36,376 bases of DNA from an uncultured Gammaproteobacteria bacterium (GTDB taxonomy: Bacteria > Patescibacteriota > Patescibacteriia > 2-12-FULL-60-25): the NCBI GenBank assembly GCA_964615825.1, contig CAZTQP010000003.1, positions 1-36,376 of the forward strand. The letters run 5' to 3'. Shown here piece by piece: positions 1,263 to 20,533 of the stretch. Below the pieces are notes generated by a model. That model was not told the DNA's origin. It was given only the letters and a program-made list of their open reading frames with translations, and did no database searches. Every line of letters begins with the position of its first letter. Positions within the stretch are counted from its first letter, which is position 1. The position numbers were made by a program, and so were the translations under genes.

Positions 1263-1445
1263 ACTAAAAAACATCTAGAGTGAGCCATTTTTTAACCTAT
1301 CTAGACGACAGATCTTAAAATAGAGCCTAAGGACTATAAGTTTTTTGCTAAGGGATCGACAAAAGATTAGATTTGTGCTTAACTGTTCTGTCGGTCTACT
1401 CTCATGAGTAGGTCGCACGAACCCCTATTTCGTCAACGCAAAGTT

Positions 1446-1454
1446 AGGAGGAGG
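1446..1454 (+). promoter_or_regulatory. Strong Shine-Dalgarno AGGAGGAGG upstream of ATG 1458
   Basis: The sequence is gttAGGAGGAGGaccATG. Confidence 0.6.
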
Positions 1455-1457
1455 ACC

Positions 1458-3167
1458 ATGTTCCTTCAAAGTGGATGGGCGATTCGTATTGCCAGTGCCA
1501 TGGTGGCACTGGCCCTCTCAGCGGGGTGCGCTGATGAACTCGAGAGCGTGGCTCGTGATAGCGGAACCCTCTCGGACCTGGGTCGTGACGCGTCCCCCGA
1601 CGCGCCCAACGACCAGGTGACCGTCGACGGCGAACTGCCGTTCGACGTCTCCGACGATGTCGCCGATGGCGACGTCGTGATCGGGAAGGACGGCGACGTC
1701 CTCCCGAATGACAACGCCGACGTCTCGCCCGACCAGGGCGATGTCGTGCTGGACACCGACGTGTCGGAGGTGGGCGACGCCCGCGCCGACGCGGACGCTT
1801 CGTCCCCGGACGTCTCCGACGCCCCCGCGGATGCTCCCTGCCCCATGCCGGGGCAGGCCACATGCGGCGGGCGATGCACGAGCATCGCGACCGACCTCGC
1901 CAACTGCGGGGCCTGCGGACGCGTCTGCTCCGTCGTCAACGGGACGCCTGCCTGCGTGGCAGGGTCCTGCACCGTCGTCGCCTGCAACAGGGACTTCGGC
2001 GACTGCGACGGCAACCCCGCGACTGGCTGCGAGACCCCGCTCACAAGCACGGCCGCCCACTGCGGAGCCTGCGGCAACGCCTGCACTGCGGCAGCTCCTC
2101 TCTGCAGCGCCCGCATCTGCTCGACCGGCTGCGCGCCGGGCGAGACGCCGTGCGGCACCGCCTGCGTCAACACGCAGATGAACCCGTCCCACTGCGGAGC
2201 CTGCGGCAACGCCTGCCCTGCCGTGCTCAACGCGATGCCAGCCTGCGAAACCGCACGCTGCGGCTTCACCTGCCTCGCAGGGTTCCACGTGTGCGGCACC
2301 GCCTGCGTGAGCAACGAGGCTCCCGCCTCGTGTGGTATGTCATGCAGCCCCTGCCCGACGCCTCCCAATGCTCTCGCGACCTGCGCGGCGGGCGGCTGCG
2401 GCTTCACCTGCACTCCTGGCTTCCAGGACTGCGACGGCGTCGCCGCCAACGGCTGCGAGGTCAACCTCGGCAACACCGACACCCACTGCGGCCGCTGCGC
2501 CAACGCCTGCCCCGCGAGCTGGACCTGCGTCGCAGGCGGATGCGAGGGCGACCTCACGCTCTCCGCCACCGTCCAGCGCTGGGGAGCGAACACCACCGGC
2601 GACTGGATGACCATCCATGACGCCGTGTGGGATCCTCCGGTGGGGGAGCGATACTACTTCGACACCTTCGGCGACCCCGCGGCCTTCGGGCTGGGAGGCG
2701 GCGGAGGGTACTACCTCATGCGTGTCGGCCTCCGATTCCCTCGGGTGGCCGTAGCCGACCCCGCCACGGCCGTCGTCGTGAGTGCCACCCTTCAGTGGCG
2801 ACTCATGGACAACCAGACGGGCTACACAACGGAGTGGCAGGTGGGGTCGCTCACGCTCACCGAGCCAGACATGCCTACCCCGGCCGATTCGCTGCACACC
2901 CACTGGGGTACAGAGCGCTTCGGCCGCATCGCCAACCGAGCGGGAGGCGACCCGACCGTTCCGATCCTTCCTGCTGTTGGAGAGACGGTCACGCTGCCCC
3001 TCGACGCAGCCGGGCGCACCTACCTGCGCACCCTCTTCCTCCGAGGCACGTCTTGGCTCAGCGTCCGCGCCGAGCGTGACGTAGCCAACATCGCGCCGGC
3101 AGGCACCTCCCGTGCCGCCATGAGCATGAGGGACACGGTCCTCATCCTGCGGGTGCGCGCACCCTAG
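1458..3167 (+). CDS. Secreted cysteine-rich repeat protein, probable lipoprotein, with a C-terminal domain of unknown function
   Basis: ORF track gives 1404..3167; I moved the start to the SD-preceded ATG 1458. The N-terminus MFLQSGWAIRIASAMVALALSAGC is a signal peptide with a lipobox-like LSAGC. It is followed by an Asp-rich acidic linker. I count 40 Cys between nt 1839 and 2549, in recurring (H)CGxCGxxC...C modules. The last ~200 aa carry no motif I recognise. A hand-counted sample is about 73% GC. A terminator hairpin follows. Confidence 0.75.
   Translation: MFLQSGWAIRIASAMVALALSAGCADELESVARDSGTLSDLGRDASPDAPNDQVTVDGELPFDVSDDVADGDVVIGKDGDVLPNDNADVSPDQGDVVLDTDVSEVGDARADADASSPDVSDAPADAPCPMPGQATCGGRCTSIATDLANCGACGRVCSVVNGTPACVAGSCTVVACNRDFGDCDGNPATGCETPLTSTAAHCGACGNACTAAAPLCSARICSTGCAPGETPCGTACVNTQMNPSHCGACGNACPAVLNAMPACETARCGFTCLAGFHVCGTACVSNEAPASCGMSCSPCPTPPNALATCAAGGCGFTCTPGFQDCDGVAANGCEVNLGNTDTHCGRCANACPASWTCVAGGCEGDLTLSATVQRWGANTTGDWMTIHDAVWDPPVGERYYFDTFGDPAAFGLGGGGGYYLMRVGLRFPRVAVADPATAVVVSATLQWRLMDNQTGYTTEWQVGSLTLTEPDMPTPADSLHTHWGTERFGRIANRAGGDPTVPILPAVGETVTLPLDAAGRTYLRTLFLRGTSWLSVRAERDVANIAPAGTSRAAMSMRDTVLILRVRAP
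2056..2216 (+). repeat. 29-nt perfect direct repeat (2056..2084 and 2188..2216) inside the Cys-rich CDS
   Basis: cccactgcggagcctgcggcaacgcctgc occurs twice, 132 nt apart and in frame, each time encoding (P/A)HCGACGNAC. Confidence 0.9.
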
Positions 3168-5862: not shown

Positions 5863-6213
5863 ATGGAAGAATCTCGTATAACCCCTGTGATCCAAAAGCC
5901 TTGGGGACAAGAAGAGTTGCTTGAAACTAGCCCTGCCTACACCGTAAAACGGCTGCTTATGCGTAAAGGCTGCCAATGTTCTTATCAGTATCACGAATAT
6001 AAGCGAGAAACGGTCTATTGCCTTTCCGGCGTCCTGACGATTAAAGGAGAAGGAGAAGACCGTCTTTTAAAGCCGGGAGAGTGGTATACCATCCTTCCTC
6101 TTGAAAAACACCGCATGTTTGCCGCAGACGAAGATTGCGTCTACCTAGAATGTTCTACTTCAGAGCTGGATGATGTCGTGCGTTTAAAGGATGATTATGG
6201 ACGCACCGTATAA
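5863..6213 (+). CDS. Stand-alone cupin resembling the type-II phosphomannose isomerase domain of ManC/AlgA/XanB
   Basis: Contains KPWGQEELL, YTVKRLLMRKGCQCSYQYHEYKRE, EKHRM and the C-terminal DDVVRLKDDYGR, compared with the canonical RPWG.E ... QYHHHRSEHW ... DDIVRLEDDYGR. Confidence 0.75.
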   Translation: MEESRITPVIQKPWGQEELLETSPAYTVKRLLMRKGCQCSYQYHEYKRETVYCLSGVLTIKGEGEDRLLKPGEWYTILPLEKHRMFAADEDCVYLECSTSELDDVVRLKDDYGRTV

Positions 6214-7771
6214 AGTTGTTATTGCCGCCTCTGGGGTCGGATCAGCGTTGGGGGATTTTATCCAGTATACAAATAAAGCCTTGATCCGCGTCGGTCGCAA
6301 GCCCGTCATCTCCTATATCGTCGAAGCGTATCCAAAAGAAATTCCGATCGTCGTCACGCTTGGGTACAAAGGCGATCTCATCAAAGAGTTCTTATTGATG
6401 GCATACCCTGGCCGTGTATTTGAGTTTATAGATGTGGATGTGTATGAAGGAGAGGGATCATCTTTGGGGTATAGCTTGTCGAAAGCCAAAGAGGTCCTTC
6501 AATGCCCCTTTATCTATCAGGCGGTAGACACGATCGTACTGGAGCCGATCGGAGCCCCCACGCACAACTGGATTGCAGGATGTAAAACGCAAGAGCTCAG
6601 TAACTATGCCGAGCTAACGGTGGTAGGAAATGCCGTAACACGAATCAAGGAAAAAGGCGCTGCCTTTGCGGGCTGGGCGCATATTGGGTTGGTGGGCGTG
6701 CATGACTATGTCGCGTTTTGGGAGGGTCTTGATGCGTTGTTGGTAAAATCCCCTCAAGTACCGTTGGGTGATGCGCATGTCATAAGCCAATTGCTGGCAG
6801 ACGGGAAAGAATTTGTATTAGCACCTATTGCGCGTTGGCTTGATACCGGGAATATCGTGTCATTGCGACACGCTCGTGAGCAGATCCCAGATGCGTTTGA
6901 AAATCTGGATAAGCTAGACGAAGCCATCTATCTCTTTGATGACTACGTGATAAAGTTTTTTGCCAATGCAGACGTAGCGCGTAAGCGGGCAGAACGTGCC
7001 GCGCTGCTCGCACCGCTTGTTCCTCCGCTCGAAGCGGCGAGCGCGCATTTTTATCGGTACGCCTATGTAAAAGGTGACCTCTACTCTAAGGTTGTCACCC
7101 CGGAAGATGTGGGTACATTTCTGTCCTGGGCAAAGGAGCATCTTTGGCGACCAAAGCAGGCGGTAGATGATGGCGCGTTTGCGGGTTTATGCACGAAGTT
7201 TTATTTAGATAAAACACGTGAGCGCGTCCAACGCTTTTTAGAACAGACGGGCATACACGACGCCCCAATCCAAATCAATGGAGTCAATGTCCCAGGTGCG
7301 CTAGAGCTCATTGCTCAAATCGACCCAAGCTGGTTCTCCAAAGGAGAGCAGACGATCTTTCATGGAGATTGTATTTTGGAAAATATTATTAAAACGCCAA
7401 CAGGCTACGCCTTAATTGACTGGCGCCAAGATTTTGCAGGGTTGTTAGAAGCGGGGGATTGTTATTATGATTTAGCTAAGTTCCATCATAATCTCGTCGT
7501 GAACCATGAGATTATTAGCCGCGACCTGTTTGAAGTACGAGAAACCGAAACGGGCGTCTGGTGCGATATCATGCGTCCACAAAACATGGTAGAAGTGCAA
7601 AATGCGTTTCTGCTTGAATGCCAGCGGAGAGGGTTTGATGTCTTACGGATACAGCGCTTATCTGCCATCATTTGGCTAAACATGGCACCTCTGCACCACC
7701 ATCCTTTTGACCGCTTCCTTTATTATTTTGGACGTCTGCAACTATGGAAAAGTCTCTCCCCACACGCATAA
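6191..7771 (+). CDS. Bifunctional nucleotidyltransferase (N-terminal) / APH-choline-kinase-fold phosphotransferase (C-terminal)
   Basis: The N-terminus KVVIAASGVGSALGDF..NKALIRVGRKPVISYIVE is an NTP-transferase fold. The C-terminus has HGDCILENII (Brenner motif) and YALIDWRQDF. It overlaps the upstream gene by 23 nt; ATG 6197 is an alternative start. Confidence 0.75.
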   Translation: MIMDAPYKVVIAASGVGSALGDFIQYTNKALIRVGRKPVISYIVEAYPKEIPIVVTLGYKGDLIKEFLLMAYPGRVFEFIDVDVYEGEGSSLGYSLSKAKEVLQCPFIYQAVDTIVLEPIGAPTHNWIAGCKTQELSNYAELTVVGNAVTRIKEKGAAFAGWAHIGLVGVHDYVAFWEGLDALLVKSPQVPLGDAHVISQLLADGKEFVLAPIARWLDTGNIVSLRHAREQIPDAFENLDKLDEAIYLFDDYVIKFFANADVARKRAERAALLAPLVPPLEAASAHFYRYAYVKGDLYSKVVTPEDVGTFLSWAKEHLWRPKQAVDDGAFAGLCTKFYLDKTRERVQRFLEQTGIHDAPIQINGVNVPGALELIAQIDPSWFSKGEQTIFHGDCILENIIKTPTGYALIDWRQDFAGLLEAGDCYYDLAKFHHNLVVNHEIISRDLFEVRETETGVWCDIMRPQNMVEVQNAFLLECQRRGFDVLRIQRLSAIIWLNMAPLHHHPFDRFLYYFGRLQLWKSLSPHA

Positions 7772-8277
7772 CGCATCTCGTCCTCGATGTCGACGGCGTC
7801 TTAACCGACGGGTCCTTTACCTATACCGCCGACGGCAAAGTCGCCAAGCGGTTTGGTCCAGATGACAATGACGCACTCTCTCTCGTGCGTCCCTATCTAT
7901 CTGTCTGTGCCGTGAGTGGGGACAAGCGCGGATTCGCCATTACTCAAAAGCGTGTAGAAGAAGATATGAAGCTTCCGCTCTACCAAGTCAGTACTTTTGA
8001 ACGGCTCGCTTGGATAAAAGAGCGCTTTCCCTTGGAGGAAACGGTCTATATGGGGGATGGGATCTTTGATGCCATGGTATTCCAAGGGGTCGGCTATGCC
8101 ATTGCACCTGCCAATGCCTTTGAGCCCATCAAACCGTATGCAGATTTTGTCACACGAGCCAAAGGAGGGTCCGGAGCAGTGGCCGAAGCCTGTTGGCATC
8201 TGATGGAACGGTTTTTTCAGCCGCTTGACGCACGCTTCCTGTCACCTGAACCTAAAGGATCAACGAAAAACGCCTAA
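7744..8277 (+). CDS. KdsC/YrbI-family HAD phosphatase (3-deoxy-ulosonate-phosphate phosphatase-like)
   Basis: Contains LVLDVDGVLTDG, SGDKR, YMGDGIFDAMVFQGVGYAIAPANA and RAKGGSGAVAEAC. It aligns by eye along its length with E. coli KdsC. Confidence 0.8.
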   Translation: MEKSLPTRITHLVLDVDGVLTDGSFTYTADGKVAKRFGPDDNDALSLVRPYLSVCAVSGDKRGFAITQKRVEEDMKLPLYQVSTFERLAWIKERFPLEETVYMGDGIFDAMVFQGVGYAIAPANAFEPIKPYADFVTRAKGGSGAVAEACWHLMERFFQPLDARFLSPEPKGSTKNA

Positions 8278-8297
8278 CGAATTCTTACGATAAAAAT

Positions 8298-9302
8298 ATG
8301 CAACCTGCGGTAAGCCATCTTGGTATCGGGCCCATGAGCCCTGAAATTGTAGAGGCGGTATTTCGTTACGCTTCGCTTAAGCAAGTACCCCTCATGCTCA
8401 TTGCCTCAAAAAACCAAATTGATTGGGACAAGGGGTATGTCATGGGTTGGAATACCGCCGAATATGGGGCGTTTATTGCCAAGATGCGCGCTAAGTATGC
8501 GGATGCGAAGGTATATGTCTGTCGTGACCACTGCGGACCGGGATTTAAAAACCAAGACCTGGCTGATGTCTATAAGACCGTAGATGCAGATATCGCGGCT
8601 GGTTTTGATTTGATCCATATCGACTTCTGCCACTTCCAAGGAACGCGTGCCGAGATGTTAGACGAATCTGCTAAGGCCATTGCCTATGTCTTGAAACAAC
8701 GTCCAGACATGTTGATTGAGGTGGGGACAGATGAAAATGTGGGGGCTATGCTGGACGATGTAAAACGCATTGAAGAAGAGATGGAATTCTTTACCAAGCA
8801 ATTTCCTATCCATTTTTTTGTCTGCCAAACAGGAACCTTGGTTAAAGAGATTAATCAAGTAGGGCAATTTAACGGAGAGTTTATCAAAAAGATTAGGGCG
8901 TCTGCGGACCGCTTCCAACTTCACCTCAAAGAACATAATGGGGACTATGTGACGGCAGAAGAAATGAGTAAGCGCCGTGGACTGATTGATGCGGTCAATG
9001 TCGCTCCTCAATACGGTGTCTTACAGACCATACTCACTCTCCAAAAAGGTCTTTTATACGGACTTTCGATTGAACCGTTCTTACAGGAAGCCTACCAGAG
9101 CAAGCGCTGGGAAAAATGGTTAAAAACAAACACCAAAGAAAACAAGCATTTGTGTTCGATAATCGCCGGGCACTATGTCTTCGCCGGCCCTGCCTACCAA
9201 GCCCTCCTGCAAGACATCAGCCGATACGAAGATGTCCGCGAAACCATTATCCAAGAAATGATGAAGCAATTTGACGGTTATCTTCGAGCTTGGAACGTTT
9301 AA
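8298..9302 (+). CDS. GatZ/KbaZ-family (class II aldolase superfamily, tagatose-6-P kinase-like) protein, short form
   Basis: By-eye matches to E. coli GatZ: [29 protein letters not shown] ~ [37 protein letters not shown] ~ [19 protein letters not shown] ~ [18 protein letters not shown] ~ YEAHSTDY. It is 334 aa against about 420 aa for GatZ. Confidence 0.65.
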   Translation: [334 protein letters not shown]

Positions 9303-9316
9303 CGTAAGCTCCTCCC

Positions 9317-10015
9317 ATGCCCTATAAAGTATTATTAACGACCTCGGGTACCGGCTCTCGACTCGGACCTCTCACGCAATCGACGAATAAGTCTCTGGTC
9401 GAAGTAGGCGGGAAACCCACTCTTTGCCATATTATTGAAGCGTATCCCGGCGATACGATCTTTGTCGTCACGCTTGGATACCTAGGGCAGCAAGTAAAAA
9501 CGTTTTTAACAGCCCAGTACCCGGATCGGAAATTCGAATACGTCTGGGTGGACCCGTATCAAGGAGCGGGGAGCAGCCTCGGATATTCCATGTTGCAGGC
9601 ACGTTCTTTGCTCGCCTGTCCATTCATTTTTCACGCCTGTGACACGATTGTGGTAGAGCCTATTCCTGCTCCTGAAACGAACTGGGTGGGGGGAAAAGTC
9701 ATAGGATCTGAACCCTTTGACCAATATCGTACGCATCTTGTAGAAGGGGGGATGGTTAAATGCTTCCAAGATAAAGGAGTTGCGCATGCCGACTCTATAC
9801 ATATCGGGTTAACAGGGATCAAGGATCATGAAGTATTTTGGAAGGTCTTAGAACGTCAGTATCACAGCCATCCCGAGGATAGTACCTTGTCAGATGTCTC
9901 CGTTTTGACCGATATGCTCGATCAAGGCGTCTCATTTGCCTGGATTCCCTATACAGTCTGGTTAGACACGGGGAATCCTCAAAGTTTGGCAAAAACTCAA
10001 GCGTATTTTTCCTAG
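9317..10015 (+). CDS. Sugar-phosphate (or alcohol-phosphate) nucleotidyltransferase; paralog of the N-terminal domain of 6191..7771
   Basis: Contains YKVLLTTSGTGSRLGPLTQSTNKSLVEVGGKPTLCHIIEAYP and GAGSSLGYS...CPFIFHACDTIVVEPIPAPETNW. It is collinear with residues 7..130 of the fusion protein. Confidence 0.8.
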   Translation: MPYKVLLTTSGTGSRLGPLTQSTNKSLVEVGGKPTLCHIIEAYPGDTIFVVTLGYLGQQVKTFLTAQYPDRKFEYVWVDPYQGAGSSLGYSMLQARSLLACPFIFHACDTIVVEPIPAPETNWVGGKVIGSEPFDQYRTHLVEGGMVKCFQDKGVAHADSIHIGLTGIKDHEVFWKVLERQYHSHPEDSTLSDVSVLTDMLDQGVSFAWIPYTVWLDTGNPQSLAKTQAYFS

Positions 10016-10033
10016 CTATATCCATCCCTTTAT

Positions 10034-11182
10034 ATGAAACCACTCGCCTCCTACATAGATCGTCCCGAGAGCGTCCTAACCGGGAAATCTTCTCTCGAGC
10101 TCCTCTATCGGTTTAAGGATTTCCCTGTATTTTTTGGTGGTACGGAAGCTCCTTCACAGGAAGATCTTGTCGCCGACATGGATTGGGCACTAGACCATGA
10201 CACGGGAATGGTGCAGCTGACAAAGCTCATCCCGTTAGAAATTTTGTACCATGCCCAACATGTAGATGGCTGCGGACCTACGTGGCAGACATACTACGAA
10301 GCGTTCGCAGACTATATCGTCTCGTTTAAGCCAAAGACTGTGGTAGAGATTGGAGGAGGTATGGGCGTATTGGCGCAACGAGTGACGAGTAAGTTACCAG
10401 AACTCGAGTGGCACATCGTAGAACCGAACCCCGCCTTTGAATCGTCTGGGCGCATTCATGTGCAAAAAGAGTTTTTCACAGCTGGCACCGTTATACCGGC
10501 ACAAGCAGACATGGTTGTGTTTTCTCAAGTGTTAGAGCATGCCTATGATCCCAAAGAGTTCATGCTGGCAATCGCGACCTTTTTGAAACCAGGAGGAAAG
10601 GTTGTTTTTGCATACCCCCATCTTTTGAAGTGGTTGCAAGAAAAATATACCAATGCGTTAAATTTTGAGCACACGATGCTCTTAACGGACGAATACCTCG
10701 ACCCGATGCTCCCCGCGCTCGGTTTTACGCCCTTAGATAAAACTCAGTACAAGGAACACAGTTTCTTTTACGCGGCAGAGCGTAATGAGGATAAGCCGCG
10801 CTTGGAGACGGTTGCGTGGCCTAATCTTTCCGCAAAGCACCGACAAGCATTCACGGATTTTATTGACCATCATGTCACGATGGTCGACGAGCTAAATCAG
10901 CAAATGCGTGCTTCAACCGTCCCGGTCTACCTCTTTGGTGCCCACATTTTTTCTACCTACCTGTTTTCTTTTGGTCTTGAGAAAGAAAAAATCGTTGGCA
11001 TGCTCGATAATAGTCCTACCAAACGAGGCAAACGATTCTATGGAACAGAATTTATGGTTGAATCTCCAGAAGTTTTGCGAGGAAAAGGCCCTGTCCAGGT
11101 AATCGTAAAGGCGGGGATTTATACAGGAGAAATTAAACAAGAGATCCTCGAAAAGATTAATCCAGAAGTGAAGTTCCTGTAG
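10034..11182 (+). CDS. Two-domain SAM-dependent methyltransferase resembling NDP-sugar C-methyltransferases (TylCIII-like)
   Basis: A class I SAM motif VVEIGGGMGVLAQ and VVFSQVLEHAYDP, plus a C-terminal Rossmann-like segment VYLFGAHIFSTYLFSFGLEKEKIVGMLDNSPTKRGKRFYGTEFMVESPE. That segment is typical of the C-methyltransferase C-terminal domain. Confidence 0.65.
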   Translation: MKPLASYIDRPESVLTGKSSLELLYRFKDFPVFFGGTEAPSQEDLVADMDWALDHDTGMVQLTKLIPLEILYHAQHVDGCGPTWQTYYEAFADYIVSFKPKTVVEIGGGMGVLAQRVTSKLPELEWHIVEPNPAFESSGRIHVQKEFFTAGTVIPAQADMVVFSQVLEHAYDPKEFMLAIATFLKPGGKVVFAYPHLLKWLQEKYTNALNFEHTMLLTDEYLDPMLPALGFTPLDKTQYKEHSFFYAAERNEDKPRLETVAWPNLSAKHRQAFTDFIDHHVTMVDELNQQMRASTVPVYLFGAHIFSTYLFSFGLEKEKIVGMLDNSPTKRGKRFYGTEFMVESPEVLRGKGPVQVIVKAGIYTGEIKQEILEKINPEVKFL

Positions 11183-11184
11183 GG

Positions 11185-12462: not shown

Positions 12463-12485
12463 GCGGTAAAGCTTACAAGTATTGT

Positions 12486-13289
12486 ATGGTGGATATCAAG
12501 TCTTTCTATGAGGGGCATTCAGACCAAATCCTAAAGAAGAGGTTATTTTCTGTATACCCGATTCGGCGCTATGCGCATGAGGCGCAATATCAAGCGATTT
12601 TGGCTCATGTAGGGGAGGGGAGCGTGTTAGATGCCGGCTGCGGCGAAGGAGCTATTGGGTTACTGCTCGCGAAGAAAAAAATCGCTTCTACTGGGATTGA
12701 TCTCTCCTATCCAAATATCGAGAAGGCTGAGCAGCAAGCGCAAGAAATGGGGGTGGCAGAGTACGCGACCTATAAGCAAGGGGATGCAGAAAAACTTCCA
12801 TTCCCCGACGCTTCATTTGATACCGTCATAAGTTCACATGTTTTAGAGCATTTGCCGAGCTTTGACGCGGGCTGGCAAGAGCTGTGTCGCGTTTCTCGTA
12901 AACGTATTATTGTGGCGCTCCCAACCGGGTTTAATCTTTGCGCCTTAGCTTTACTTGGAGGGGATCACGGCTACTGGCAAGTGAGTAAACGATCCCTGTG
13001 GGCCATTCCTTGGGGAATCATTCGTACCCTTCTAAATATATTTGGCGAAGGCGTACAAGAAGGGTACGCAGGCAAGGATGAGCTACCGCATATCTGGCGC
13101 TTTCCTTGGATCGTGCGACGACGCCTCTCTCATCCCGAGTGGAAAATCGTCTCCTATGCCGCGAGTAGCCTGAGCCTGCCTTATTTCTCCTTCCTTATTC
13201 CCTTGGTACAGTGGCTCGACCGCTTCAGGTCTCTCCCCTTAGTAAGGTATTTAGGCTATGGATCTACCATTGTCCTTGAGCGCCGTTAA
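12486..13289 (+). CDS. Class I SAM-dependent methyltransferase (Methyltransf_11-like)
   Basis: Contains VLDAGCGEGAIGLLLAKK, GDAEKLPFPDASFDTVISSHVLEHLP. Confidence 0.8.
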   Translation: MVDIKSFYEGHSDQILKKRLFSVYPIRRYAHEAQYQAILAHVGEGSVLDAGCGEGAIGLLLAKKKIASTGIDLSYPNIEKAEQQAQEMGVAEYATYKQGDAEKLPFPDASFDTVISSHVLEHLPSFDAGWQELCRVSRKRIIVALPTGFNLCALALLGGDHGYWQVSKRSLWAIPWGIIRTLLNIFGEGVQEGYAGKDELPHIWRFPWIVRRRLSHPEWKIVSYAASSLSLPYFSFLIPLVQWLDRFRSLPLVRYLGYGSTIVLERR

Positions 13290-14767
13290 AATTGGAAATA
13301 AATGAAGGTCTGAGATTGAGTTTGGCTAAAAACGAGGATGAGTAACAGGGCGGTTGAAAGCACAAGCCAGCGTCCGATATGGAAGGAGGTTGTATGTGGC
13401 CTATCTTTAAAGCTTGCGAAGTAACCTAACCGTTGGCCAGCCTCAAAAATGAGCAAGGCTAAGATGCTCAACACGCACACGTAAAATGTATCCGCTGGTC
13501 GTCCAAGAAAAATATTTTTGGCGATAAATGCTGGAGAGGGCCACGTAGAGAGTGTCTGGCTCCAGCCTGAAAAAAGCTGACGAATGATCACCCAGGATTG
13601 CCCCACGTTACTCGCACGAAAAAAGATCCAACCAAAACAAATAAGGGAAAATGTTGCAAGTGTTTGCCACGTGGCAAGGATCTTTGAGCCGAACACTTTT
13701 GGGAGGTTTGCTGCGAAAGGAGCATGTATCCTTTGAGTAATCGAAGCAATGATGATGTAGAGTCCATTTAAAGCCCCCCAGATAAAAAAGGTCCAATTTG
13801 CCCCATGCCAAATCCCACTCAGAAAGAAGGTCAAGAAAACATTAAAATAAGTTCGTCCGTTTCCGCGGCGATTTCCTCCTAATGGAATGTAGACATAGTC
13901 TCTAAACCAACTGGAGAGCGAGATATGCCAGCGCTTCCAAAACTCAGAGATCGACCGTGAAAGGTAGGGTTGCTTAAAATTTTCCATGAGGGTAAAGCCA
14001 AGGACTTGGGCAGAGCCAAGAGCGATATCCGAATACCCAGAAAAATCCCCATAAATTTGAAAGGCGAACAGTACGAGCGCAATAGCAATACTAATCCCAG
14101 GATAGTCAGAGGGATATTGGTAGACTTGGTTGACGAACGTGGCGGCTAAATCTGCAATCACGAGCTTTTTAAAAAAACCGAGCAACATCCGTTGGAGTCC
14201 CGTCGCTATTCGTGGCCAAGAGAAAAAGTGCTTTTCTTTAAACTGATGCAGCATGTTCTGAGGTCGTTCAATCGGGCCGGCCACCAGTTGGGGAAAAAAC
14301 AGTACATATAGAGCAAAAATCCCTAGATGACGTTCGGTTTTTTGGTTGCCTCGATAGACCTCTACGGTATAGCTAACGCTTTGAAAAGTATGGAATGAAA
14401 GTCCAAGTGGAAGGATGAATTCAAGAGCATGGAGGGGATAATTCCAATGCAGTAGACGCGCTAATTCCACCACATTCTCAGACAGAAAGGGAAGGTATTT
14501 ATACACGATTAAGAGCATCATGTTCAAGATGATGCTCGCGACGAGAAACCGCTTCTTATGCATCGGATAAGCCTCCATGAGCAAACCGGCCGAGTAATCG
14601 ATGGCAATGGTAAGTCCCAAGATAAGGATGTATTTTGGGATAAAGCACATGTAGAAGAAGCAACTCGCCGCTAATAACCAAGCCCAGCGAATTCGATGGG
14701 GGAACAAAAAATACCCCAAACAGACGAGTGGGAAGAAGAGGAGAAACGCCAAGGAGTTAAATAGCAT
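13286..14767 (-). CDS. MBOAT-family O-acyltransferase (AlgI/DltB-like)
   Basis: Starts MLFNSLAFLLFFPLV and is polytopic. The conserved His region is FWKRWHISLSSWFRDYVYIPLGGNRRG, followed by FLLSGIWHGANW. Confidence 0.9.
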   Translation of the reverse strand: MLFNSLAFLLFFPLVCLGYFLFPHRIRWAWLLAASCFFYMCFIPKYILILGLTIAIDYSAGLLMEAYPMHKKRFLVASIILNMMLLIVYKYLPFLSENVVELARLLHWNYPLHALEFILPLGLSFHTFQSVSYTVEVYRGNQKTERHLGIFALYVLFFPQLVAGPIERPQNMLHQFKEKHFFSWPRIATGLQRMLLGFFKKLVIADLAATFVNQVYQYPSDYPGISIAIALVLFAFQIYGDFSGYSDIALGSAQVLGFTLMENFKQPYLSRSISEFWKRWHISLSSWFRDYVYIPLGGNRRGNGRTYFNVFLTFFLSGIWHGANWTFFIWGALNGLYIIIASITQRIHAPFAANLPKVFGSKILATWQTLATFSLICFGWIFFRASNVGQSWVIIRQLFSGWSQTLSTWPSPAFIAKNIFLGRPADTFYVCVLSILALLIFEAGQRLGYFASFKDRPHTTSFHIGRWLVLSTALLLILVFSQTQSQTFIYFQF

Positions 14768-14769
14768 AC

Positions 14770-15843
14770 TTACGGGGAAATTCGGCAGCGGTCATGAGCG
14801 CTCAGCTGCGCATTAACCGTCTTATAGAGCAAGCTCGCCATGGCCTCATGGCCGCGCTGCGTAAAATGATCTTCACAATCATAGGTTAGGCATTCGGATA
14901 TCTCGGTCTTTACCAGGGCTAAGTCGTTGGCTGGATTGACGAAGCTGATTTGTTCACGAGTCAAGAATTCTGTCAGGGCAACCATGTGAGGGTCTTGTTT
15001 CCAGGCATCAATATGAGCGGAATGTCCTTCATTGCTATATACGACGACCACGAGCTTTGATCCACTCGTCTGTACCAACGCATCCATTTTTTTTAAAATT
15101 TCAAACGTGTAGTTGAGGAAGGCGGGGGAAGCGCTTGGTTCACTATTCGTTCCGTTGGTAATTCCTGCTGATTCATAAAAACCAAGCAGGCGTAAAAGAT
15201 AAATGACGGTTGCGCTCGATTGGATCTTGCTAAAAACAAACTTAGGTAATTGAAATCTCAGCAAAAATGCTTTTAAGCCGACCGCTTTCCGTTCCTGTGC
15301 GTAGGTTTCGAGATTAAAGGTGGATTTCTGAAGGTTATCTAAGTAATCATCATGGAAAACCAAGAGCGTTAGCTCGGGTTTAAGTGGTGCGACTTTATAT
15401 TTAAAGGTTTGGTATTGAGAAAAAGTTCCTGTGCCGCCTACGCCAAAATTCAGTACTTCAAATGTTTGCGAACATACTCGACTGACATTTAGCGAGGTTT
15501 GCAACAAATGGGAAAAATTATGATAGAAATCCACCTGCTGAGCTTCTACCAACGAATCACCCAAAATGGCAATTCTGGTCGTGTGCGTGGCGGCCACAGT
15601 AGACACATCTGCTTCACCGATATATCCAAGGTTATTCGTTTTAATGAACACGCTCTGTTGTGATCGTTCGTCCCATACATCGCCTCGGAAGTTCTTCACG
15701 TGAATTGACCCCACTTCGGGATCGGTACGTAACAAGGGGAGGGCGGAGCGACCAAGGACCCGCAAACCAACCTCGAGATACAACAAGGTGGCGAAACTAG
15801 CCAGGACCCAAAGGCCCAGGGGCTTTAAGAAGGATTTATCCAT
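14770..15843 (-). CDS. Membrane-anchored SGNH/GDSL-like hydrolase/acyltransferase partner of the MBOAT (AlgJ/AlgX/DltD-type role)
   Basis: N-terminal TM helix, then IAILGDSLVEAQQ (block I), NFGVGGTGT (block II) and CEDHFTQRGHEAMA (block V-like D..H). It sits immediately upstream of the MBOAT gene on the same strand. Confidence 0.65.
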   Translation of the reverse strand: MDKSFLKPLGLWVLASFATLLYLEVGLRVLGRSALPLLRTDPEVGSIHVKNFRGDVWDERSQQSVFIKTNNLGYIGEADVSTVAATHTTRIAILGDSLVEAQQVDFYHNFSHLLQTSLNVSRVCSQTFEVLNFGVGGTGTFSQYQTFKYKVAPLKPELTLLVFHDDYLDNLQKSTFNLETYAQERKAVGLKAFLLRFQLPKFVFSKIQSSATVIYLLRLLGFYESAGITNGTNSEPSASPAFLNYTFEILKKMDALVQTSGSKLVVVVYSNEGHSAHIDAWKQDPHMVALTEFLTREQISFVNPANDLALVKTEISECLTYDCEDHFTQRGHEAMASLLYKTVNAQLSAHDRCRISP

Positions 15844-15937
15844 GAAGTAAAAGTTAGACGCAATATACAGGCCATAGAGGGGTCTTTCAAGTTGCAGAAT
15901 TTAGTACCTCGCTTTAGGATGAGGTAAATATTCCTAT

Positions 15938-17083
15938 ATGTTTCTCATCGAACATGACGGTAAGCAGTTATTGCGAGCGATCGGCCTGTCGATTCCGGCA
16001 GGTGTTTTCGCATCTTTAGACGAAGCATCAACGGAATTTGCGAAGCTGGATTGGTCGCATCCTTGGTATCTAAAAGCGCAGGTCTTGCAGGGTCGCCGTG
16101 GCAAATCCGGCCTCGTTCGTCGTGTCGACACCCAAAAAGAGGTAGAAGGGGTCATTGCCGATATGCGAGCTATTCTTGGCACGACCCCTTGCGCTGGTCT
16201 ATTGGCAGACCCTGCGGTCGCCCATGCATCGGAGTGGTTAGTAAGTGTAGACATTGACCGCGAAGCGGGTGCCGTTCGCATCAACTATTCTCCCGAAGGA
16301 GGGATGGCGGTTTCTCAAGCGCATTCCGTAACGATACGAGATGCTTCAGATTGGGAGGGGATCAACGTACCCGCTTCCATTCTCGCTTTAGCAAAAACGC
16401 TGCATACAGCGATGGGGACGCAGGATGCACTAAGCATGGAAATAAACCCATTAGCTGTCTTAGTAGATGGTTCCTGTATCGCGTTAGATGCAAAAATTGA
16501 GCTAGATGACGCGGCCTGGAGCCGTCATCCGGAGTGGACAGAATTTATTTCGCATCGTTTGCGTAGCGTAGGAAAAACCGAACGCGAGCAGGCCTTTAAT
16601 ATATTATTAGACTCGGCTGGGCATCGCGGCACCATGGGTCGATACCTCGAGCTAGACGGAGACATTGCTGTAATCCTCTCCGGTGGAGGAGCGAGTCTCG
16701 TAGCCATGGATGCCCTCATGCATGTGGGGCTCAAGCCAGGAAATTATCTTGAAGCCAGTGGCAATCCAGATCCAGAAAGCTTACGAAAAGCAGCGGCCAT
16801 TGTGCTCTCAAAGCCCGATCTCAAAGCGCTCTGGATTGCAGGCTCATTCGCGAATTTTACCGATATTCAGGCCACGGTCATGGCGGTCCTCGGCGCCATG
16901 GAAGATACGAATACGCGCTTGCCGATTGTGGTTCGTCGTGATGGTCCAAATGCCGATGCAGCCCAATCCGAAGCAGTTACGTGGGCCAAAGAACAGGGAA
17001 TCCCTCTCACCTTCCATCGTGGCGATACCGACTTAGAAACGGCCGCCCATTCCGTCGCGGATGCCGTCCGCATACCCGCGTAG
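15938..17083 (+). CDS. SucC-like ATP-grasp subunit (succinyl-CoA synthetase beta / ATP-citrate lyase beta / citryl-CoA synthetase large subunit family)
   Basis: By-eye matches to SucC: [18 protein letters not shown] ~ [39 protein letters not shown] ~ [43 protein letters not shown] ~ [38 protein letters not shown] ~ VPVVVRLEGNNAE. Confidence 0.8.
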   Translation: [381 protein letters not shown]

Positions 17084-17116
17084 CATTCTCCTTCCTACTA
17101 GCCTACTTCTAATACT

Positions 17117-18007
17117 ATGTGGAAACGATTTTCAGCTGATACCCAGATCCTGATCCAGGGCATGACCGGCAAAGAGGGGATGCGCATGGCCAAGTGGTTA
17201 CTTGGAAGCGGGGTTAAGGTTGTGGCAGGTGTCACGCCTGGAAAGGGCGGACAAACCGTCGAAGGGCAACCGATCTTCAATAGTATCGCCGAAGCAAAAG
17301 AGGTTTTTCCTGGAATCGAAGTGACGAGCATCGTCGTGCCTCCCATGCGCGTCTTGGGAGCCGTCGAAGACGCCTTGCAAAATGGTCTAAAATATTTGCA
17401 GATTTTAACCGAGAATATCCCTGTCCACGACGTCCTCTCCATGCGACAGAAGGCACAGGCGATGGACGCGACGATTCTCGGCCCAAGCTCGGTCGGATAT
17501 CTGCAGTTCCCTAAATTCCGCGTCGGTTACATCGGCGGTGAAGAACCGTTCAAAATTCTTAAAGAAGGTTCCCTCGCGGTCATCTCTAACTCAGGCGGGA
17601 TGACGAATGAGTTGCTGATGGGATTGTCTCGCCGTGGAATAGGTGTGCGTTGCGCCTTTGCTGTAGGCGGTGATCGTGTGGTTGGGACTTCATTACGTGA
17701 CGCACTTGTGCACGCAGAAGCCTCCGAAGATGTAAAAGCCGTTGCGATGTTTGCCGAGCCTGGACATCCTCTCCTCGTTGCCCTCGCGAACGGTGAATAC
17801 GTCGCAAAAAAGCCGCTTGCCATCCTCATGCCGGGAGATGTGCTCGACACGCTCCCTCGCGGCATGCCCTACGGACACACGGGTACCGTCCTCGGAGAAG
17901 ATGACCGTTCTGTGCCAGAGATGCGGGCGGCCATCCAAGCGAAGGGATATATATGCACAGGTTCCCTGAAAGAAATGTTTGAAGCCTGTGAAAAAATCGG
18001 CGCCTAA
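17117..18007 (+). CDS. SucD-like CoA-binding / phosphohistidine subunit (succinyl-CoA synthetase alpha family)
   Basis: By-eye matches to SucD: [11 protein letters not shown]...[26 protein letters not shown] ~ VICQGFTGSQG...[32 protein letters not shown] ~ [20 protein letters not shown] ~ [21 protein letters not shown] ~ RMGHAGAIIA (catalytic His). Confidence 0.85.
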   Translation: [296 protein letters not shown]

Positions 18008-18024
18008 TATTATTTTATTGACCT

Positions 18025-18717
18025 ATGTCATTCGGAGCCATTAAAGACAGTGAATACCACTTGCGGGATGTGCCTGTGTCGCGTCTCATGCAAGAGCAAG
18101 ATCTCGTATCTGTGCTATGTTTAGCATGGCTGGGAAAATTACCCACCGCTTCAGAAAAAATCCTCTTAAACGCCTGTCTCGTGGCCTCAGTCGACCACGG
18201 CCAAGAGCCCCCTAGCGCACATGTCACGCGTCGGGTCGCAAGCTGTGGGAAGCCGATTGCCGATGCTGTAGCCGCCGGTCTCCTGACCCTCGGCCCACGT
18301 CATGGCAATGCTGCCACCGCCGCCGGGCAGTGGGTGCAAAACGCGGTTAACGCAGGACGTATGCCCGGAGAAGTAGTGGAAGAAGCACTCACGAGCAAAA
18401 AACGTTTATCAGGTATTGGTCATCCAGAATACAGCATCGATCCACGTACAACGACGATCGCGGCTTTGGCAAAGGCCCACCTCCCTTCCACGCCGCATCT
18501 CGACTTCGCCCTCGACGTCTCACGCCTCATGACAGAGCGCAAAGGGAGTGCCCTTCCTCTAAATGTTGATGGAGCCATAGGTTCTCTCATGGTCGATTTA
18601 GGTTGGCCGCTTATGTTCGCTGACGCGATCTTTCTCGTGGCACGCACGATTGGCCTTGTCGCCCATGCGCACGAAGAATGCGAGGCAACCACCGGAGGAA
18701 CCTACAAACGTGGGTAG
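18025..18717 (+). CDS. Stand-alone citrate-synthase-like / citryl-CoA-lyase-like protein (matches the C-terminal domain of ATP-citrate lyase)
   Basis: Contains VDHGQEPPSAHVTRRVASCGKPIADAVAAGLLTLGPRHGNAATAA, SGIGHPEYSIDPR, LPLNVDGAIGSL and LVARTIGLVAHAHEE, in the same order as the ACLY/Ccl conserved blocks. It is only 230 aa. Confidence 0.7.
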   Translation: MSFGAIKDSEYHLRDVPVSRLMQEQDLVSVLCLAWLGKLPTASEKILLNACLVASVDHGQEPPSAHVTRRVASCGKPIADAVAAGLLTLGPRHGNAATAAGQWVQNAVNAGRMPGEVVEEALTSKKRLSGIGHPEYSIDPRTTTIAALAKAHLPSTPHLDFALDVSRLMTERKGSALPLNVDGAIGSLMVDLGWPLMFADAIFLVARTIGLVAHAHEECEATTGGTYKRG

Positions 18718-18723
18718 CTTGCA

Positions 18724-18752
18724 TTGACACGCCTACGACCAATTCGTATCGT
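18724..18752 (+). promoter_or_regulatory. Candidate sigma70-like promoter TTGACA (18724..18729), 17-nt spacer, TATCGT (18747..18752)
   Basis: Read directly. The -35 box is perfect and the -10 box matches 4/6, keeping T1, A2 and T6. It would give a very short leader for the gene starting at 18767. Confidence 0.3.
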
Positions 18753-18766
18753 ACCCTAATATCTCT

Positions 18767-19600
18767 ATGAATAAGACGCGCTATACCGTAGGTATCATGG
18801 GAACCGGCTTTGTGGGCGGGGCTTTAAAGCGGTATTTTGAATCCGTCGGTATCACTCCCTTTACCTATGATAAAGGGAAAAATGAAGGGTCAGTCGAAGA
18901 AGTGAATAAAGCAGACGTTATTTTTATCTGTGTTCCTACCCCATACTATCTGGACGGAAGTGGGTTTGATTTATCATATGTGCGTTCCGCGCTCGACGCC
19001 ATTCAAGGAGAGAAGATGGTTGTCTTAAAATCTACGGTCATTCCAGGGACAACTGCTATGCTGCAGGCAGAGTATCCACATCATAAGCTCATGTATAATC
19101 CTGAGTTTTTGACAGAGGTCACAGCGGACCAAGACATGAATTTTCCTGACCGCCAAATTTTAGGCACAACGGACCAGAGCTATACCGTTGCTTCAGATAT
19201 TATCGCCATGCTTCCACTTGCTCCTTTTGAGCGCGTGGTTCCTTGTACTGTCGCCGAAATGGTGAAGTATGCTGGCAACACTTGGTTCGCTGTTAAAGTC
19301 ACATTCTCTAACCAGATGTACGACTTAGCGCAAAAAATGGGAGTGGATTACGATAATGTAAAAGAGTGTATGGCTGCCGACAAACGTATTGGGCGCACAC
19401 ACTTAGATATTTTTCACAAAGGCTATCGTGGGTATGGGGGGAAGTGTCTGCCAAAAGATACACGCGCCCTTATTCAGTTAGCAGCAGCTCGCGGTGTTGA
19501 TCTTACCCTCCTTCAATCTTCGGAAGACTACAATAACGCCCTCGTCGCCGCCCAAGGTATGGACATCCAATGGCAAGAAGGTTCTCCTAAGAAATCTTAG
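18767..19600 (+). CDS. UDP-glucose/GDP-mannose dehydrogenase-family protein, short form lacking the C-terminal nucleotide-sugar-binding domain
   Basis: Contains GIMGTGFVGGAL (Rossmann), VIFICVPTP, YNPEFLTE and GYGGKCLPKD (catalytic Cys). The protein ends at 277 aa, whereas typical family members are about 390-440 aa. Confidence 0.7.
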   Translation: MNKTRYTVGIMGTGFVGGALKRYFESVGITPFTYDKGKNEGSVEEVNKADVIFICVPTPYYLDGSGFDLSYVRSALDAIQGEKMVVLKSTVIPGTTAMLQAEYPHHKLMYNPEFLTEVTADQDMNFPDRQILGTTDQSYTVASDIIAMLPLAPFERVVPCTVAEMVKYAGNTWFAVKVTFSNQMYDLAQKMGVDYDNVKECMAADKRIGRTHLDIFHKGYRGYGGKCLPKDTRALIQLAAARGVDLTLLQSSEDYNNALVAAQGMDIQWQEGSPKKS

Positions 19601-19609
19601 CGATACACT

Positions 19610-20533
19610 ATGTCTCTTTATCTTGTTACCGGCGGTGCTGGCTTTATCGGATCGCATTTGACAGAAGCCCTATTGTCTCAGGGACACCGTGTGCGTGTAC
19701 TCGATAACCTTTCAACAGGAAAACGAGAAAATATTCCTGCAGGAGCAGAATTTTTTCAAGCAGATTTTTGTGATGAGGTAGCGATTCGTCCTGCGTTCGA
19801 GGGAGTGGAGGGGGTATTTCATGTCGGAGCATTGCCACGCGTTCCCTTCTCGATCGCTCAACCTATAGAAAGTGCTAAAAACAACATCATGGGGACGCTC
19901 AATGTGTTGGTGGCTGCCCGTGATGCTAAGGTAAAGCGTGTTGTGTATAGCGCTTCCTCTTCTGCTTACGGCAACCAGGATCGCCTCCCTCTTACGCCGG
20001 ACATGCGGCCAAACCCGCTCAACCCCTACGCCTTGCAAAAATATGTAGGTGAATTATTTTGTCAGCAGTTTTCTTCCCTCTACGGGCTCGAAACCGTTTC
20101 TCTGCGCTACTTCAATGTCTATGGTCCACGCATGGCCAATGATGGGGCCTATGTAACGGTGATCGCGATTTTCATGCGTCAATATAAAGCAGGTGAAACC
20201 CTCACGATTGACGGTGATGGTGAACAAACCCGTGACTTCACGCATGTAAAAGATGTGGTATCTGCCAACATTGCTGCCATGCACTCATCCAAGGTGGGAG
20301 CGGGTGAAGTAGTCAATGTCGGTAACGGAGAGCGTTATTCAGTGAATTTTATTGCTCAGAAAATTAGCCCGACGATCATTCATCGAGAATCTCCTCGTGG
20401 AAAAGGGGATGCACGTGATACGCAGGCCGATGTCACCCTTACACAACAGCTTCTGTCTTGGAGTCCGGAGATCCCGTTTGAGCAGGGGTTGGCGAGCCTT
20501 TTACGGGAGGAAGGGATCGAGCCCATTCAATAA
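19610..20533 (+). CDS. NAD-dependent nucleotide-sugar 4-epimerase (GalE/WbpP-like extended SDR)
   Basis: Contains VTGGAGFIGSHL, SSSAYG, YALQKY (YxxxK), RYFNVYGPRM and GDGEQTRDFTHVKDV. Confidence 0.8.
   Translation: MSLYLVTGGAGFIGSHLTEALLSQGHRVRVLDNLSTGKRENIPAGAEFFQADFCDEVAIRPAFEGVEGVFHVGALPRVPFSIAQPIESAKNNIMGTLNVLVAARDAKVKRVVYSASSSAYGNQDRLPLTPDMRPNPLNPYALQKYVGELFCQQFSSLYGLETVSLRYFNVYGPRMANDGAYVTVIAIFMRQYKAGETLTIDGDGEQTRDFTHVKDVVSANIAAMHSSKVGAGEVVNVGNGERYSVNFIAQKISPTIIHRESPRGKGDARDTQADVTLTQQLLSWSPEIPFEQGLASLLREEGIEPIQ

Follow-up and report, generated by a model that had tools for sequence, protein, structure and literature searches.

The subject of this analysis is a run of three adjacent genes, in the order beta-alpha-lyase, on a 36,376-nucleotide stretch of contig CAZTQP010000003.1 (the window), and, judged from its sequence, this trio most likely encodes a divergent citryl-CoA synthetase (CCS), consisting of a large (beta-type) and a small (alpha-type) subunit, together with a citryl-CoA lyase (CCL). 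We lean, with modest confidence, toward the reading that the trio would make acetyl-CoA from scavenged citrate and that this acetyl-CoA would be used mainly for the acetylation of sugars. The domain composition of the proteins, their conserved catalytic and citrate-site residues, and sugar-gene neighbourhoods that recur among relatives are observed; which acid is actually used, which way the reaction runs, where the citrate comes from and what becomes of the acetyl-CoA are what we infer. An earlier first-pass annotation of this DNA had placed the trio opposite a pair of genes for an MBOAT acyltransferase and an SGNH-like protein, and all five open reading frames (ORFs) appear in the ORF list exactly where it had located them, as do the gaps of 33 nt between beta and alpha and 17 nt between alpha and lyase, and the 94-nt spacer (15844..15937) between beta and the divergently transcribed SGNH-like gene. 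The trio genes are co-directional on the plus strand. Its placement in a glycan cluster is also borne out: the surrounding 36 kb are full of polysaccharide genes, including a flippase, GT4 and GT2 glycosyltransferases, Bac_transf, GtrA, epimerases, methyltransferases and an S8 peptidase.

The beta protein matches ATP-grasp_2 (7e-14, residues 3-125) and the Citrate_bind domain of the ATP-citrate lyase (ACL) type (PF16114, 1.5e-16, residues 237-365), and its top match among solved structures is the large subunit of CCS (6hxq_B, 2.1e-31). The ATP-grasp domain retains the Lys equivalent to K46 and the motifs EINPL and ALDAK. At the citrate site, the motifs SGGGAS, ASGNP, ANFT and VVRRDGPN are the counterparts of G309, N346, T348 and R378-R379 of ACLY. 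A citrate-binding role for ACLY G309, N346, T348 and R379 was reportedly established by Sun et al. in 2010. The corresponding motifs are GGGGS, GGNP, ANNT and VVRRNGP in CCS, and NGAGL, GGGA, GGIT or GGIV, and VMRVAG in succinyl-CoA synthetase (SCS); the citrate-site residues (SG, ANFT, VRRxGP) are kept across the whole clade of the Candidate Phyla Radiation (CPR) to which the trio belongs and are absent from SCS (ACLY numbering checked against PMC9504748). On the strength of these citrate-type motifs in a residue-level alignment, we regard the class of substrate as settled. A neighbour-joining tree rooted on E. coli SucC, a kind of comparison that the first-pass annotation had proposed, puts beta in a CPR-specific clade adjoining the ACL-type betas and far from the root.

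The alpha protein contains CoA_binding (1.3e-17) and Succ_CoA_lig (4.5e-09) domains, and the phosphohistidine loop previously recognized in it is present as GHTGT: in the form YGHTGT it is kept across the CPR clade, where it aligns with the GHAGA of other groups. Among solved structures, alpha scores about equally against an archaeal SCS-alpha (140.9 bits) and the small subunit of CCS (6hxq_A, 131.7 bits), and higher against both than against ACL-alpha (94 bits). The lyase matches Citrate_synt (2.6e-34) at profile positions 140-349 of 357 only, in keeping with its earlier description as just the C-terminal part of a citrate-synthase-like protein. Its top NCBIfam matches are subfamily models of citryl-CoA lyase (2.7e-43), with citrate synthase models scoring much lower, and its top solved structure is CCL itself (6hxp_A, 8.5e-35), followed by ACL lyase modules at 95 bits and citrate synthases at no more than 52 bits. 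Six residues (H58, H93, H133, R141, D182 and R207), which we take to be equivalent to H238, H274, H320, R329, D375 and R401 of citrate synthase, are invariant in 30 homologues, and the catalytic residues align with HGGA, GHR and NVDG of CCL; the first catalytic His is retained as in CCL, within HGNA here and HGGA there. By these matches the lyase is a predicted CCL of a divergent branch.

Compared with CcsAB plus Ccl (PDB 6hxq and 6hxp, presumably from Hydrogenobacter thermophilus), the trio likewise comprises three separate polypeptides with matching domains, with these structures the best matches for beta and the lyase, and its lyase likewise amounts to no more than the C-terminal module of a citrate synthase and has the full set of three catalytic residues, the first His included. 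The differences are also considerable: identity is only about 25-35%, beta has 381 rather than 429 aa, with deletions in the ATP-grasp domain, the lyase has 230 rather than 268 aa, GHTGT stands in place of GHAGA, and the genes form a single operon within a sugar/glycan cluster of an organism that probably lacks a reductive tricarboxylic acid (TCA) cycle. With AclBA, as in Chlorobium, the trio shares the citrate-site motifs and, as predicted, the overall chemistry; but in ACL the alpha and lyase parts make up one polypeptide of 574-627 aa, with Phe in place of the first catalytic His (GPRFGGA), whereas here the His is kept, and an alpha of 296 aa and a lyase of 230 aa encoded by separate genes, 17 nt apart, exclude an AclAB-type fusion. 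With SucCD the trio has in common its fold family, subunit organisation, phospho-His mechanism and adjoining beta-alpha gene order, but its acid-site motifs are those of citrate rather than succinate enzymes, there is always a lyase gene next in line, and scores lie far under the equivalog cut-offs (149 bits against 375 for beta and SucC; 169 against 336 for alpha and SucD, both NCBIfam). The full-length alignment of beta and alpha with SucC and SucD that had been noted by eye is thus sound as remote family homology and does not hold as a close match. Ordinary SucCD and citrate synthase are ruled out by the curated cut-offs, the motifs and the tree, and identity with the malate-CoA ligase MtkAB is rejected by the MtkA model (NF010647), for which beta reaches 117.8 bits and the cut-off is 604. 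Profiles, structure matches, motifs and tree agree with the first-pass view that the trio is of the ACL or CCS/CCL kind.

A different acid (succinate, malate or another hydroxy-acid) might nevertheless be activated, yielding a non-acetyl acyl-CoA donor for the MBOAT protein or another acyltransferase, and the divergence of these proteins, all under every curated equivalog cut-off, gives this idea some room, as do the about equal scores of alpha against SCS-alpha and the CCS small subunit and the reading HGNA where CCL has HGGA. We consider it improbable: beta keeps the ACLY citrate-site residues, unlike SCS; its score against the malate-CoA ligase model is a fraction of the cut-off; the MBOAT gene is absent from most relatives; and a lyase with intact oxaloacetate/citrate-binding His and Arg is always co-encoded, although it would have no role if the CoA ester were itself the donor. 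The succinyl- or malyl-CoA donor that had been offered as an option is unlikely on account of the same conserved residues in the citrate site and the lyase.

Table 1. Features of the window treated in the text, with their positions
Feature	Position	Strand	Length	Basis or remark
MBOAT membrane O-acyltransferase (AlgI/PatA/DltB type)	13286..14767	-	493 aa	PF03062 2e-33
Membrane-anchored SGNH-like partner	14770..15843	-	357 aa	Weak assignment
Indel cassette	13284..15936	.	2.65 kb	MBOAT + SGNH-like gene + divergent spacer
Putative citryl-CoA synthetase large (beta-type) subunit	15938..17083	+	381 aa	ATP-grasp + citrate-binding domains
Putative citryl-CoA synthetase small (alpha-type) subunit	17117..18007	+	296 aa	CoA-binding + phosphohistidine domains
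Putative citryl-CoA lyase	18025..18717	+	230 aa	Stand-alone C-terminal module of citrate-synthase fold
Short UDP-sugar-dehydrogenase-like protein	18767..19600	+	277 aa	Pfam UDPG_MGDP_dh_N + central domain only
TviC/GalE-like NAD-dependent sugar epimerase	19610..20533	+	307 aa	Epimerase PF01370 5.5e-63

Among 476 homologues of the lyase, the top ones come from metagenome-assembled genomes of Patescibacteria, Uhrbacteria and Parcubacteria, and the genome loci nearest to the trio are labelled likewise; the window is part of a Patescibacteria (CPR) genome of small size. CCS and CCL, the closest characterised homologues of the trio, reportedly serve the reductive TCA cycle (a finding credited to Aoshima in 2004), and on this ground one might see here the citrate-cleaving step of that cycle, used for CO2 fixation as in Aquificae. 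This is extremely improbable for a small-genome member of the Patescibacteria, given that CPR generally lack TCA enzymes (PMC9698310) and that neither the 36 kb of the window nor the 20-kb flanks read from relatives contained a TCA gene.

Under the reading that we favour, beta would bind ATP, through its ATP-grasp domain, and citrate; alpha would bind CoA and carry the phosphohistidine; the two together would form citryl-CoA from citrate, ATP and CoA; and the 230-aa lyase would split citryl-CoA into acetyl-CoA and oxaloacetate. Since the TCA cycle and fatty-acid synthesis are absent from most CPR (PMC9698310), the citrate is probably imported or otherwise scavenged, and the main sink for acetyl-CoA would be the acetylation of sugars and glycans, that is, N- and O-acetylation of amino sugars and surface glycans. 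Such a use would explain why the operon has repeatedly been recruited into sugar clusters.

Both partial reactions, that of the synthetase and that of the lyase, are reversible in principle, and run backward the trio would join acetyl-CoA and oxaloacetate to citryl-CoA and release citrate with formation of ATP, in effect an ATP-yielding citrate synthase that would conserve energy in fermentation. The dependence of CPR on substrate-level phosphorylation (PMC9698310) lends this some appeal; however, it is not evident where an organism without a TCA cycle would obtain oxaloacetate or what it would do with citrate, and the neighbours of the trio are acetyl-CoA-consuming sugar pathways and not fermentation genes, so that we hold reversal to be very improbable.

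A scan that took one genome per species yielded 79 loci (cited below by number), and 52 of these hold all three parts in the order beta-alpha-lyase. The fully split form, which had been thought special, is found at 43 of the 52 complete loci and in many phyla: alpha (about 300 aa) and lyase (about 210-270 aa) each have a gene of their own, also in Zixibacteria, Planctomycetota, Coatesbacteria and Spirochaetes, and the fused ACL form (574-627 aa) is confined to nine loci, including those of Verrucomicrobia, Dojkabacteria and one of Saccharibacteria.

Two departures from the usual beta were seen at these loci. Some members of the clade (L018/L086, at 8150-9106; L020, L022, L023 and L050) have betas of only 308-322 aa in which about 40-60 residues are missing between ALDAK and the citrate-binding domain, and with them a portion of the N-terminal region, which leaves a much reduced ATP-grasp domain. 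Lyase-linked betas of a second, deep class, 511-516 aa long, occur in Zixibacteria, Planctomycetota, Verrucomicrobia, Coatesbacteria and Spirochaetes (L034, L038, L040, L042, L044, L048, L049, L058, L063, L065, L069, L075 and L078); these carry GVASQEQ and IRLGGN in place of the ANFT and VRRxGP of the ACL/CCS class, and they may have a different acid-binding site.

The position of the trio inside sugar or glycan clusters recurs in CPR relatives at 41-87% identity, with other neighbours in other CPR clades. In a uniform tblastn count, sugar-type neighbours were present at 15 of 18 core CPR-clade loci, 7 of 11 other CPR-like loci and none of 31 non-CPR loci, a count whose queries were drawn from CPR genomes and which favours CPR matches and is less sensitive in distant phyla. 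In relatives at 68-87% identity, the trio stands at the same boundary, with variable sugar-modification genes on one side and on the other a conserved core block of short UDP-sugar dehydrogenase, TviC-like epimerase, PMT-like protein, Bac_transf, S8 peptidase, GtrA, epimerase, GT2, DUF2304 and GT4 genes. The placement in a glycan cluster is, in short, the part of the reported gene order that is conserved, which we regard as our principal result, and the adjacency to MBOAT and SGNH is the part that is not.

In deeper relatives (41-60% identity) the neighbours are sugar enzymes that use acetyl-CoA. The genes for a hexapeptide N-acetyltransferase, a DegT aminotransferase, a PseB/LegB-type dehydratase, beta, alpha and lyase are contiguous at L012, L018/L086, L020, L021/L084 and L023; at all of these except L012, NeuC and NeuB lie further upstream, and L018/L086, L020 and L021/L084 have GFO-type oxidoreductases and a CMP-sugar synthetase upstream in addition. 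The junction with beta in loci of this nonulosonic-acid type consists of 4-nt gaps or overlaps, and from their gene content the sets at L018/L086, L020, L021/L084 and L023 form, with the trio, a predicted operon of the legionaminic/pseudaminic-acid type. In others of these deeper relatives, a GNAT gene lies directly upstream of the trio (L003/L011) or just downstream of it with NeuB nearby (L085/L014, L019, L022). Other CPR clades have different neighbours, which once more belong to amino-sugar or NDP-sugar metabolism. At L036 the trio is placed between GlmS and a 142-aa GNAT whose matches among solved structures include glucosamine-6-phosphate N-acetyltransferase; at L052, L059 and L076, GlmS and a CofD-like gene precede the trio; and beside the fused ACL genes of L071, L073 and L079 lie those for a ManC-like nucleotidyltransferase, a GDP-mannose-dehydratase-like enzyme and a GT4.

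These neighbourhoods bear on whether the acetyl-CoA would serve sugars in particular or the cell at large. In the chief alternative, that of a general central-carbon module, the trio would turn scavenged citrate into acetyl-CoA and oxaloacetate for all needs, and its position among glycan genes would be inherited gene order with no particular functional tie; this is possible, in our estimate, but somewhat doubtful. Two loci place the trio among translation genes, L087 (7688-12110) between secE and nusG-rplK and L050 (8215-12353) just upstream of tuf-rpsJ, which suggests a housekeeping role in those lineages; in four close relatives (L005, L088, L089 and L090) the trio has no acyltransferase nearer than 10 kb; the trio keeps its place among relatives whose genes upstream of it have been exchanged; and the ACL of a Gracilibacterium has been interpreted in just this way (PMC6851277). 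Set against this, separate CPR clades show different sugar neighbourhoods (nonulosonic-acid genes with an N-acetyltransferase, GlmS with GNAT, NDP-sugar genes with the fused form, and the MBOAT cassette), for which inherited gene order alone is not an easy explanation, and none of these neighbours was found at the 31 non-CPR loci.

Several of these observations count against acetyl-CoA production from citrate for sugar acetylation, namely the four relatives without a nearby acyltransferase, the two loci among translation genes, and the bias of the tblastn count, and others must be added to them. The lyase reaches only 148.2 bits against its best model (NF004869), with a cut-off of 212, and is under the cut-off of the other models as well; the ATP-grasp domain of beta is shorter than in both SucC and CCS; no citrate transporter was found among the genes of the window; and many CPR are predicted to form acetyl-CoA from pyruvate (PMC9698310), so that citrate need not be the sole source.

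Our preference for sugar acetylation as the main use of the acetyl-CoA has a wider form that we put forward only tentatively: the CCS/CCL operon of a large Patescibacteria clade may have been recruited as a built-in generator of acetyl-CoA for surface-glycan pathways, with citrate from the host or the surroundings as the carbon source of the acetyl groups displayed by the symbiont. The pathways served would be the nonulosonic-acid operons, the GlmS/GNAT hexosamine genes and the O-acetylation cassettes, and the oxaloacetate released might also feed phosphoenolpyruvate for NeuB-type synthases.

It had been proposed that the trio is wired to the MBOAT/SGNH pair as a dedicated source of its acyl donor. 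The MBOAT assignment is solid (Table 1): the top match among solved structures is DltB (6bug_C, 3.4e-26), and the histidine of the WHG motif is aligned. The call of its partner as an SGNH protein is weak, with Lipase_GDSL at E=0.0045, which misses the Pfam threshold, TesA at E=0.23 over the GDS block and block II, and no match in NCBIfam. Like the PatA/PatB, AlgI/AlgJ and DltB/DltD pairs, the two genes set an MBOAT protein with the conserved His beside a membrane-anchored SGNH-like protein in a polysaccharide locus; unlike them, this pair has no DltA/DltC carrier genes nearby, has only a weak SGNH call and belongs to a mobile accessory cassette. We know of no established in vivo acyl donor for the MBOAT + SGNH class.

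The cassette is not a fixed partner of the trio. By blastn, positions 10000-13283 of the window correspond to 4618-7900 of L005 (87%) and positions 15937-20984 to 7923-12960 of L005 (81%), with nothing between; since this closest relative (L005/L001, with a lyase 87% identical) is collinear on both sides and lacks the pair, the pair amounts to a clean 2.65-kb indel. Among the relatives examined only L006 shares it, with an SGNH-like orthologue that is 82% identical and adjoins the MBOAT gene, and it is absent from L005, L007/L088, L008, L089 and L090. A donor module dedicated to the MBOAT protein is rejected, the cassette being missing from most relatives, and 'dedicated' is too strong a word in any case for a trio that in close relatives has no acyltransferase within reach and in two genomes sits among translation genes. 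We regard the cassette as a recent, mobile accessory. A scan of 12400-20600 for promoters and terminators found sites no commoner than in shuffled sequence, and the 94-nt spacer contains a single promoter-like match, which lies on the minus strand and faces the SGNH/MBOAT genes, and so gives no evidence of shared divergent regulation. What survives of the proposal is its more general part, the supply of an acyl-CoA for glycans, which the recurrent sugar-gene neighbours favour in the form of acetyl-CoA for sugar acetylation. Within the window itself, a search for nonulosonic-acid genes (NeuB, DegT), GNATs and hexapeptide acetyltransferases found none, which leaves MBOAT as the sole local candidate acyltransferase and its cassette as the only candidate local consumer of acetyl-CoA.

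Enzymes of this kind have been reported from CPR before. Homologues of CCS/CCL in these bacteria have been noted to be mis-annotated as SCS or citrate synthase (bioRxiv 10.1101/2022.10.25.513756), aclAB was reported to be enriched in Saccharimonadia (PMC12577380), and for the ACL of a Gracilibacterium the prediction was that it makes acetyl-CoA and oxaloacetate from external citrate (PMC6851277), the same conversion in a CPR bacterium that we predict here. The system is thus of a known kind and its chemistry probably ordinary; the novelty appears to lie in the divergent CPR clade and in the way its genomes tie the trio to sugar genes. Our literature search, which combined nonulosonic acid with CPR and citryl-CoA with CPR lineages, found no paper on a linkage of the trio to nonulosonic-acid, GlmS or glycan operons.

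The CPR or Patescibacteria are abundant, mostly uncultured episymbionts of minimal metabolism, and where their acetyl-CoA comes from and what it is used for are poorly known. If citrate does supply the acetyl groups of their amino sugars and glycans, this would name a concrete host-derived nutrient, would explain an otherwise orphan 'TCA-like' set of enzymes in organisms without a TCA cycle, and would offer a testable handle, through citrate feeding and isotope tracing, for cultivation and for the study of surface nonulosonic acids. Were the operon in addition a built-in generator for surface-glycan pathways, there would be a direct link from the TCA intermediates of the host to the surface decoration of the symbiont. 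For annotation, SucCD and citrate synthase are the wrong names for such genes, and these should not be read as evidence of a reductive TCA cycle.

Directly downstream of the trio lies a short UDP-sugar-dehydrogenase-like gene. Its 277-aa product aligns with residues 79-312 of the 446-aa UGDH 4a7p and retains the catalytic Cys motif GYGGKCLPKD, and it lacks the whole C-terminal UDP-binding domain and part of the N-terminal domain. Orthologues of 274-277 aa occur beside a TviC-like epimerase at L001, L003, L012, L085, L088, L089 and L090, a conservation that argues against a pseudogene. The gene follows the CCL gene directly at L001, L003, L012, L088 and L090; it was considered as a fourth component of the module, but is 3 kb away at L085, about 7.5 kb away at L089 and undetected near the trio in deeper relatives. 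Because it travels with the TviC-like epimerase while its distance from the trio varies, it is more likely a member of the core glycan block. The epimerase itself, conserved with the short dehydrogenase in relatives, matches TviC (1.6e-50) and GalE (5.7e-52) of NCBIfam, under the cut-off in both cases.

Further observations concern the surroundings of the trio. Scans of the whole window for tRNA genes and Rfam families gave no matches. The trio region (16001..19000) has a GC content of 52-54%, and the flanking glycan genes, including the MBOAT/SGNH cassette, have 45-49%. On the upstream side, a 116-aa cupin (5863..6213) precedes a set of genes at 6191..10015 and 10034..11182 for a 526-aa nucleotidyltransferase/kinase-like protein, a HAD phosphatase, a class-II aldolase-like protein, an NTP-transferase and a C-methyltransferase-like protein; together the genes at 5863..11182 suggest a pathway for an unusual activated sugar, and the set at 6191..11182 holds the slot upstream of the trio that nonulosonic-acid genes fill in deeper relatives. 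In some of those relatives (L084 at 10775-16217, L086 at 14846-19616 and L020 at 14285-18435), the nonulosonic-acid/CCS-CCL operon is adjoined by genes that recur together, encoding a radical-SAM/SPASM protein, a DAO-type flavoprotein, a short-chain dehydrogenase and a thiamine-diphosphate enzyme with fused E1 alpha and beta parts (675-681 aa). Near the start of the window, at 1404..3167 on the plus strand, is a gene for a predicted lipoprotein of 587 aa, with an LSAGC lipobox, many Cys-rich CGxCGxxC repeats and a weak match to Stig1; it sits in a stretch of about 70% GC in a window of about 48% GC overall, and similar ORFs are present at L088 and L089.

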